Origin: Escherichia virus TH26
Sequence record: MT446400.1
Strand: one strand, 5' to 3'
Length of the DNA: 51,200 nucleotides
A program made the position numbers and the translations under genes. Positions 40,148-40,620 of the stretch are shown in pieces. Position 1 is the stretch's first letter, and the number at the start of each line of letters is the position of its first letter. A model generated the notes under the pieces. It made no database searches. It saw only the letters and a list, made by a program, of their open reading frames with translations, and was not told where the DNA came from.

Positions 40148-40620
40148 ATCTTTTGGCCTATGAAACAGGCCACAGGGTTGCGAAAATAGCCCTATTTTAG
40201 GACTATAGCCAACCGTTTGTGTCAATTCTGGATAACTGCATTGGCGAAGGGTTACTCCCGTTAGGGTGCGACCTGCGTATCATAACTGCGCCGCAGCCTG
40301 GCAAGCTACGGAGGTCACAGAGGCTTTGTAACCCTTCCCAATACATTCACCCAAATCCCAGCGTTGGCGTAGCTGGTGGCTCGGTTTTGTGCGGATTATG
40401 CCACTCTAAGCCCTGTTTGTCCGACTTCCTCGGAGCACCAGCGGCTTGTGGCACAAACCTATTTTCGAATGACAAGCATACAGATGAGTCTGCCGCATCA
40501 CGGCTCCTGCTGTTCTATTGGCCCCAAAAGCCTCAGTATCTTGTACCAATTCATCCCAATACATCGCCTATAACAAGTGAATAGCTTTTCTGCGAATAAG
40601 TATTCTGGCCCTTTTGGCCT
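40148..40620 (-). ncRNA. GC-rich ORF-free island flanked by 13-bp direct repeats (candidate structured non-coding RNA or small inserted element)
   Basis: cttttggcctatg occurs at about 40148-40160 and 40608-40620; the ~450 nt between is markedly GC-richer than flanks, has local hairpins (ggcct-atgaaac-aggcc) and no credible ORF; lies downstream of three tandem promoter-like motifs. Confidence 0.3.

Follow-up and report, generated by a model that had tools for sequence, protein, structure and literature searches.

The window analysed here, a stretch of 51,200 nucleotides (nt) from Escherichia virus TH26 (sequence record MT446400.1), is that of a phiEcoM-GJ1-like phage (Chaseviridae, Cleopatravirinae, Carltongylesvirus) and matches phages of this kind at 83-95% identity. 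Its long open reading frames (ORFs) are all on the minus strand, so transcription runs from high to low coordinates, and a single-subunit RNA polymerase of 728 amino acids (aa) is encoded at 48443-50629. The element considered here is in a gap of about 1 kb whose neighbours are genes for proteins of 78 aa (41105-41341) and 67 aa (39899-40102); there an earlier note on this DNA had marked a GC-rich, ORF-free island at 40148-40620. The island is indeed rich in G+C (0.47-0.53, against about 0.37-0.42 in the flanks) and lacks a plausible ORF (below), but the borders given to it were too narrow: the feature reaches, on the minus strand, from about 40745 down to 40103 and is a structured non-coding RNA of ~640 nt, with the island as its body.

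The structure of this RNA was derived from an alignment of 26 sequences, for which RNAalifold predicts 161 pairs, and 98.9% of the cells of the alignment at these pairs are paired when read as minus-strand RNA. Thirty-one of the pairs are changed on both sides; shuffles give 13.0 ± 2.3 such pairs and slid controls 6-7, and none of the 500 shuffles reached the observed values; covariation across related phages, the check that the earlier note had proposed for a structured RNA, is thus present. As for the strand, 467 cells hold G-U combinations that are workable on the minus strand only, and pairing falls to 88.0% if the same region is read as plus-strand RNA. This G-U asymmetry fixes the strand as minus, the same strand that the promoters upstream (below) transcribe. 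A single-sequence fold of the window's own sequence has a z of -4.8. Sequence conservation is patchy in the manner of an RNA: sequences compared in pairs have an identity of 0.95-0.99 over 40396-40485 and of about 0.98 both at 40216-40245 and at 40096-40125, and these conserved stretches are broken by blocks that are swapped wholesale.

Could the region instead encode protein? ORFs of 30-134 aa are present on both strands, and small hypothetical coding sequences have been annotated here in BSBP01, 2KOFFS, YSF, Mangalitsa and the PYps phages, as might be expected of a decayed or mis-called gene. However, the ORF maps differ among 27 relatives, no ORF is common to all of them, and frames shift between close relatives. 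Variable columns are spread over the three codon phases as 69/74/69, so there is no 3-base periodicity, insertions and deletions in the island are 1, 2 or 11 nt long, and the variation within helices is compensatory. A conserved frame, periodicity and indels in multiples of three were all looked for in the island and none was found, which bears out the earlier note in its statement that no plausible ORF is present. We consider a protein-coding gene at this site very improbable, and several of the small coding sequences annotated in the region are spurious entries that should be corrected in the databases. Conservation, covariation, strand-specific G-U pairs and the absent coding signal together support the first of the two proposals made in the earlier note, a structured non-coding RNA fed by tandem promoters.

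The second proposal was a small inserted element, or its remnant, that had duplicated its target site. It had been reported that the same 13-mer occurs at both borders of the island, and the window does have exactly two copies of CTTTTGGCCTATG, one at 40150 and the other at 40611. Modules inside the region are also swapped among phages, and phiEcoM-GJ1 carries an HNH homing-endonuclease gene there. Is this repeat more than chance would give? About 60 other exact 13-mer pairs are present in the window, and Markov simulations with the same dinucleotide make-up as the window give an expectation of 0.6 pairs within 600 nt per window, with at least one such pair in 39% of simulations. The second copy reads CTGGGCCAAAAG, ATGGGCCAAAAG and similar in relatives, and the exact repeat is private to a few phages. 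The two copies are, moreover, halves of two different GGCC...GGCC hairpins of the RNA, copy 2 (40150-40162) being held by the hairpin at 40154-40172 in the 3' domain. All 45 related phage records have the island, at 80-94% identity; in none of these did alignment show an empty site with a single 13-mer, which is what the earlier note had suggested looking for, and no transposase, integrase or endonuclease is encoded here in the window. The 13-mer is therefore not a meaningful flanking repeat, a mobile element that duplicated a 13-bp target can hardly be entertained, and the insertion and coding readings are both effectively excluded.

Table 1. Features of the RNA and of the promoters before it, in the order of transcription
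Feature	Position in window	Strand	Remarks
Predicted phage-RNA-polymerase promoter, copy 1	41020-41038	minus	AAACATTAGTGGGATTTGA; equals phiEcoM-GJ1 'putative phage promoter 4' and the SA91KD promoter
Predicted phage promoter, copy 2	40877-40898	minus	GAAACATTAGTTGGAATTGAAA; equals GJ1 'promoter 5'
Predicted phage promoter, copy 3	40749-40769	minus	CATTAGTTGGAATTGAAA; directly before the structured RNA
Cloverleaf cassette resembling transfer RNA (tRNA)	40661-40740	minus	Fold; 11-bp closing stem, mini D-arm, anticodon-like arm, T-arm
Anticodon-like arm	40697-40716	minus	CGUCU-GGUACCA-AGACG; cassette fold
Invariant hairpin	40644-40660	minus	GAUGGAA-UGU-UUCCAUC; identical in 26/26 Carltongylesvirus sequences
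GGCC hairpin	40607-40623	minus	GGCC-AAAAG-GGCC; holds 13-mer copy 1 (40611-40623)
Three-way junction 'J3'	40472-40544	minus	P1 encloses hairpin P2, a conserved joining strand and hairpin P3
Core helix	40393-40459	minus	Terminal hairpin UCCGA-GGAAG-UCGGA (40420-40434)
Long helix, ~27 bp	40228-40354	minus	5' strand 40328-40354, 3' strand 40228-40255
Hypervariable branched tip of long helix	40267-40319	minus	Four unrelated versions, closing stem kept in all
Hairpin in long-helix domain	40257-40266	minus	CCC-UAAC-GGG; predicted
3' domain	40154-40222	minus	Conserved ACAAACG, hairpin 40176-40214, hairpin GGCC-UGUUUCAUA-GGCC (40154-40172)
Gene start	40100-40137	minus	GUCACA box, ribosome-binding site GGAGAG (40108-40114), start codon 40100-40102 of the 67-aa gene

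At least five genera of Chaseviridae share one architecture: a tRNA-like cassette, an invariant hairpin, a three-way junction, a core, a helix of ~27 base pairs (bp) with a variable tip, an ACAAACG...GUCACA 3' domain and a ribosome-binding site. Individual helices are kept while their letters change. The invariant hairpin of the genus reads GAUGGAA-AUG-GUUCCAUC in relative L073 and GAUAGC-GUUAU-GCUAUC in Loessnervirus Y2; hairpin P2 of the junction is GGCU-UUUGG-GGCC in the window and AGCU-GUUAG-GGCU in most relatives; and the terminal hairpin of the core has as its counterparts UUGGA-GAAAG-UCCAA in GJ1 and UUGAA-GGAAG-UUCAA in Sabourvirus 4HA13.

The distant loci in this comparison (other genera, IMG/VR and metagenomes) were fetched by way of a family-conserved 224-aa protein that is encoded 0.8 kb downstream. 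The three-way junction, whose core is AAGCUGUUAGGGCUGAAUAAUUAGAG, is present in 4HA13, Y2, Suwonvirus Okapia, Myducvirus PA_03 and metagenomic relatives. In 16 diverse sequences all seven pairs of its P1 are changed on both sides, and 91.6% of cells are paired, compared with 35-38% when the pairing is slid. P2 and the joining strand, on the other hand, are nearly invariant, as would be expected of a predicted binding site. Scores from a covariance model built on the junction are 47-80 bits at Chaseviridae-type loci only and at most 26.5 bits elsewhere; the 76 matches to its 20-nt pattern in bacterial genomes, and several in viral ones, were all at or below 26.5 bits and were treated as chance (L075, the only off-family match inspected, is within an ORF). 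When diverse relatives were folded singly and independently, the long helix came back in all 11 of them, although their inner sequences differ. It has 23-46 predicted pairs in nine of these (T7-like RNase III sites have helices of ~20 bp or more) and only 11-12 contiguous pairs in Okapia and L049; across genera 87.9% of cells in its outer 16 pairs are paired, a share that falls to 31-45% when the pairing is slid. The 3' domain can likewise be followed, as CAAACG with GUCACA 72-87 nt later in 10 distant loci. Y2 and Okapia have a phage promoter after the junction and before the 3' domain, so the two halves of the RNA are separately transcribable there. A 17-mer scan of IMG/VR gave nine matches, namely records of ST32, Mangalitsa, GJ1 and flopper, one further relative, and four that are chance.

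The three tandem promoter-like motifs that the earlier note had described also proved sound: all are on the minus strand, and all match the 20-nt sequence that the annotations of phiEcoM-GJ1 and SA91KD call a 'putative phage promoter'. Copy 1 is placed after the annotated terminator of the upstream gene, and the core TTAGTKGG is found in the window in 11 copies on the minus strand and one on the plus strand. The presence of a conserved RNA behind them lends independent support to the predicted Chaseviridae promoter. Between promoter copies there is an extra cassette, a 128-bp unit (40769-40896) that GJ1 and TH37 lack. The G+C content over 40800-40999, upstream of the RNA, is 0.34. When the window and its relatives (L001-L026) are compared, the inter-promoter segment acts as a swappable cassette bounded by the promoter repeats; in FXie, PO103-1, Mangalitsa, PYps3T and others it is 170-330 bp long and bears small ORFs.

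The tRNA-like cassette at the 5' end of the RNA has the D-arm ACU-AGGU-AGU and the T-arm AGAACG-UUCGAUU-CGUUCU. Ten of the 14 pairs in its helices 2 and 6 are changed on both sides, and at least five different cassette sequences occur among relatives, with the T-arm kept in most. At the corresponding place in L071, a metagenomic relative, ARAGORN reports a tRNA ('tRNA-???', abnormal anticodon loop), which indicates that the cassette is tRNA-derived. It is no ordinary tRNA in the window: the T-arm and cloverleaf are present, together with a G at position 33 in the loop GGUACCA, an 11-bp closing stem and no CCA. Searches with the tRNA covariance model at E up to 10 miss it in the window, and ARAGORN makes no call on the window or on close relatives.

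The anticodon-like loop (7-9 nt) of the cassette is GGUACCA in the window, CGGCCGA in TH23, TH24 and TH25, GCGGCCGC in SA91KD, ST32 and Mangalitsa, GUGCACA in BSBP01 and CGGCGCCGU in 4HA13. The loop sequences thus differ between lineages, and each is a GC-rich palindrome of 6-8 nt (GUGCAC and GGCGCC are among them); by our own arithmetic a random 7-nt loop holds a 6-nt palindrome about 3% of the time. What would constrain a loop to change from one palindrome to another? Neighbouring bases of one loop cannot pair with each other, so covariation of this kind points to pairing between two RNA copies, and the switching of loop palindromes suggests symmetric RNA-RNA kissing. The same argument, from palindrome-to-palindrome covariation to intermolecular kissing, has been made for OLE and GOLLD (PMC12286853). 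One candidate for an intramolecular partner of the GGUACC loop, GGUGCU in the core, is able to pair with it, but was rejected since it stays invariant while the loop changes. Six-nt palindromes elsewhere in the RNA are not above expectation. In DNA form, GGTACC has one copy in the 51-kb window, where 9.3 are expected, and this sole copy is the cassette loop. Avoidance of 6-nt palindromes is window-wide, with 14 of the 64 absent and several others at 1-2 copies against 9-15 expected, and is consistent with selection against restriction sites. In relative L048 (~2446) no palindromic cassette loop is found, yet the 7-nt loop GGCGCCA (a palindrome plus A) is at the tip of the long helix, and in PYps16N GACGTC lies in a 14-nt loop at that tip. 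Either of the two variable modules may thus be able to house a kissing site.

Does the RNA belong to a class that is already known? It is undescribed in the libraries and literature searched. At gathering score the only Rfam 15 match in the whole window is a tRNA at 37414-37506; permissive searches gave nothing credible at E up to 10 in 39900-41300 and nothing at E up to 1 in 10 relatives, and no Rfam family was matched in the homologous region of four other genera. In the literature on phiEcoM-GJ1, Chaseviridae and Carltongylesvirus that was covered (the 2008 GJ1 genome paper lies outside this coverage) no RNA is reported here. The RNA likewise has no Rfam match to HEARO, the IscB omega-RNA, which is found beside an IscB-size HNH/RuvC protein; the HNH ORF of this region is found only in GJ1, where it is 133 aa long and inside the replaced module (below).

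The systems closest in kind are ROOL and GOLLD, for both of which Rfam has models. Like them, the RNA is phage-encoded, several hundred nt long, made of several domains and next to tRNA or tRNA-like genes; it has no known associated protein, and a conserved part is joined to variable parts. In addition its palindromic loops covary, which in OLE and GOLLD marks the symmetric kissing loops of homo-oligomers (PMC12286853). It differs from them in that neither model matches it in sequence or structure, even with E allowed to reach 10, so that it cannot be placed in either family by its model, and in that it occurs in other hosts and another phage family, as a promoter-proximal leader continuous with messenger RNA (mRNA) and behind T7-type promoters. 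Oligomerisation is, furthermore, only predicted here, and the palindromic loop is in a swappable tRNA-like cassette that is absent from some relatives. ROOL and GOLLD were recently shown to form RNA-only cages; we know of no function for either, and to our knowledge their natural hosts do not lend themselves easily to experiments. An RNA that compares with them in size and complexity is now at hand in lytic coliphages that grow on E. coli K-12 (phage flopper, for example), which makes the question of what ornate phage RNAs do directly testable. Dozens of natural variants have been sequenced, phiEcoM-GJ1 is a natural knock-out with its core replaced, and the swappable tRNA-like module with its palindromic loops yields a simple prediction of dimerisation.

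Parts of the RNA resemble other systems. The RNase III sites and leaders of the T7 group (R0.3, R1.1 and others, near promoters 1.1A/1.1B) are likewise immediately downstream of tandem promoters in a phage with a single-subunit RNA polymerase, and the long helix, of about two and a half turns, is of a size acceptable to RNase III, although cleavage is only predicted here. The T7 sites are, however, single hairpins of ~50-60 nt, unlike this 640-nt multi-domain RNA with its cross-genus junction. With the tRNA-like structures that serve for processing or mimicry (mascRNA of MALAT1, the tRNA-like domain of the bacterial Y-RNA YrlA and those of plant viruses) the cassette shares a cloverleaf, a canonical T-arm (UUCGAUU) and a GG-containing D-like loop inside a longer RNA, and also, by the ARAGORN call in L071, a derivation from tRNA. 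It is unlike them in its place at the 5' end of the transcript, its 11-bp 'acceptor' stem without CCA, the G in place of the universal U33, its palindromic loop and its escape from the tRNA model in the window. The loop itself, a 6-nt GC-rich palindrome with a flanking purine that varies among lineages while remaining self-complementary, is like the dimerisation initiation site of human immunodeficiency virus type 1, in which the hairpin loop is 9 nt and GUGCAC is among the variants of the palindrome. Here the loop is 7 nt long and in a tRNA-like arm of a phage RNA, and the likeness seen is one of the loop, with no sign of genome dimerisation or packaging.

How might such a leader work? We think it somewhat probable that it is processed into an abundant RNA that acts at the RNA level, as follows: the phage polymerase would make the leader in large amounts, and since no terminator stands between the RNA and the next gene, the RNA would be made as the 5' leader of that operon. 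A cloverleaf and a long near-perfect helix are the shapes that host RNase P and RNase III cut, so the leader is probably processed, into a stable, abundant RNA of ~400 nt and an mRNA with a structured 5' end. The freed RNA would function as RNA, and two copies of it could pair by symmetric kissing of their palindromic 7-nt cassette loops; the invariant loop and joining strand of the junction would bind a host or phage partner. Candidate roles are host takeover, counter-defence or control of the downstream genes. A bolder form of this idea, which we regard as unlikely but worth stating, is that these RNAs make up a Chaseviridae-specific class of ornate RNAs that are excised from a highly transcribed leader, oligomerise, as dimers or larger homo-oligomers, through the self-complementary anticodon-like loop of a tRNA mimic and capture by their junction a host factor such as a tRNA- or RNA-directed defence or processing enzyme. 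If this were true, a ROOL/GOLLD-like RNA machine would be available in an E. coli phage that can be cultured, has a T7-type polymerase and is easily handled genetically.

Several observations weigh against a processed, trans-acting RNA. The cuts by RNase P and RNase III are predicted from shape alone. No intrinsic terminator is found on the minus strand between the RNA and the next gene, and the RNA has no defined 3' end, with which a purely cis-acting leader is equally compatible. The cassettes of PYps23T, flopper, MLP1, Pel53 and L055 are without the T-arm or the palindromic loop, so not every one of these RNAs can dimerise by way of it. The central 220 nt are missing from phiEcoM-GJ1, which has in their place another module, with the HNH endonuclease gene in it; this module is related to that of 4HA13, which also differs from the window at this point. 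The central part is therefore dispensable or interchangeable. Finally, no promoter of Chaseviridae has been identified experimentally according to the family's ICTV profile (PMC12842549), and the three promoters therefore stay predictions.

The main rival is a leader that acts purely in cis, without any trans-acting product, which we think possible but distinctly less probable than the processed RNA; its structured 5' end would guard against RNase E and stabilise the downstream operon, and a hairpin that sequesters the ribosome-binding site and start codon would set the rate of translation. The missing terminator speaks for it, as do the ribosome-binding site and start codon, which fall inside a predicted hairpin GAAUC...GAUUC (GCUC...GAGC in Y2), and the sequence around the start codon, which is conserved regardless of the gene that follows. 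Transcripts of T7-type polymerases outrun ribosomes and rely on RNA structure for their stability, which would also fit. Yet 640 nt with near-invariant unpaired strands, a junction kept across genera and a tRNA-like module far exceed what known stabilising leaders need, and the promoter between the junction and the 3' domain in Y2 and Okapia makes the junction unneeded in cis on every transcript there. An improbable alternative is that the conserved sequence is a DNA signal, the primary replication origin of a T7-like replisome, in which the tandem promoters and the AT-rich stretch would prime the leading strand. In T7 the primary origin is made up of two promoters in tandem, 1.1A and 1.1B, and of an AT-rich region after them, and here two to three tandem phage promoters, about one fifth into the genome, are accompanied by the stretch of low G+C noted above and adjoined by a conserved consensus sigma-70 promoter that faces the opposite way. 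Conservation follows the helices of the RNA, however, with compensatory changes and with G-U cells tolerated on one strand only. The promoters and AT-rich stretch are, besides, upstream of an RNA that is itself GC-rich, so that an origin in 40770-41040 would leave the 640 nt downstream of it unexplained; the two readings can coexist. GC skew has no turning point here, which is uninformative as an origin search.

The sigma-70 promoter (TTGACA, 18 nt, TATAAT; a perfect consensus) is on the plus strand at 40965-40994 with an A/T-rich stretch before it, and faces the opposite way to all genes of the phage. In 4HA13, Y2, Okapia, PA_03 and L073 its reverse complement (GCATTATACA...TGTCAA) is conserved just upstream of the RNA. 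An antisense or insulating transcript may start from this promoter, or it may be a component of an origin.

Searches of the neighbouring proteins against Pfam and PHROGs gave no hint of function. The protein encoded inside the replaced central module of phiEcoM-GJ1, gp24 (L002 1884-2285, 133 aa), is annotated as 'putative exonuclease SbcC' and bears the HNH signature CxxC...HH...CxxHH...H; it matches a PHROG endonuclease family with an E of 9e-10, and the SbcC label should be corrected to HNH endonuclease. A second tRNA-like gene, about 2.6 kb downstream of the structured RNA (37414-37506, minus strand), scores 41.5 bits against the Rfam tRNA model and draws no call from ARAGORN. It has a 24-nt insertion in the D-loop, an apparent 'anticodon' loop of 5 nt (UAAGA), a normal T-arm and an encoded GCCA end. 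Weak, sub-gathering matches to permuted and alpha-proteobacterial models of transfer-messenger RNA were seen in 4HA13 (L036 5312-5419) and Y2 (L037 5538-5684); these are intergenic, downstream of a gp29-like gene and near real tRNA genes.

The first 149 bases of the window (1-149) recur at its end (51052-51200), so the window wraps an assembly of ~51,051 bp. A run of 32 A (50988-51019) is located just before the wrap point, which may be an assembly join or be near a physical end; terminal repeats in the family are ~2.3-3 kb.

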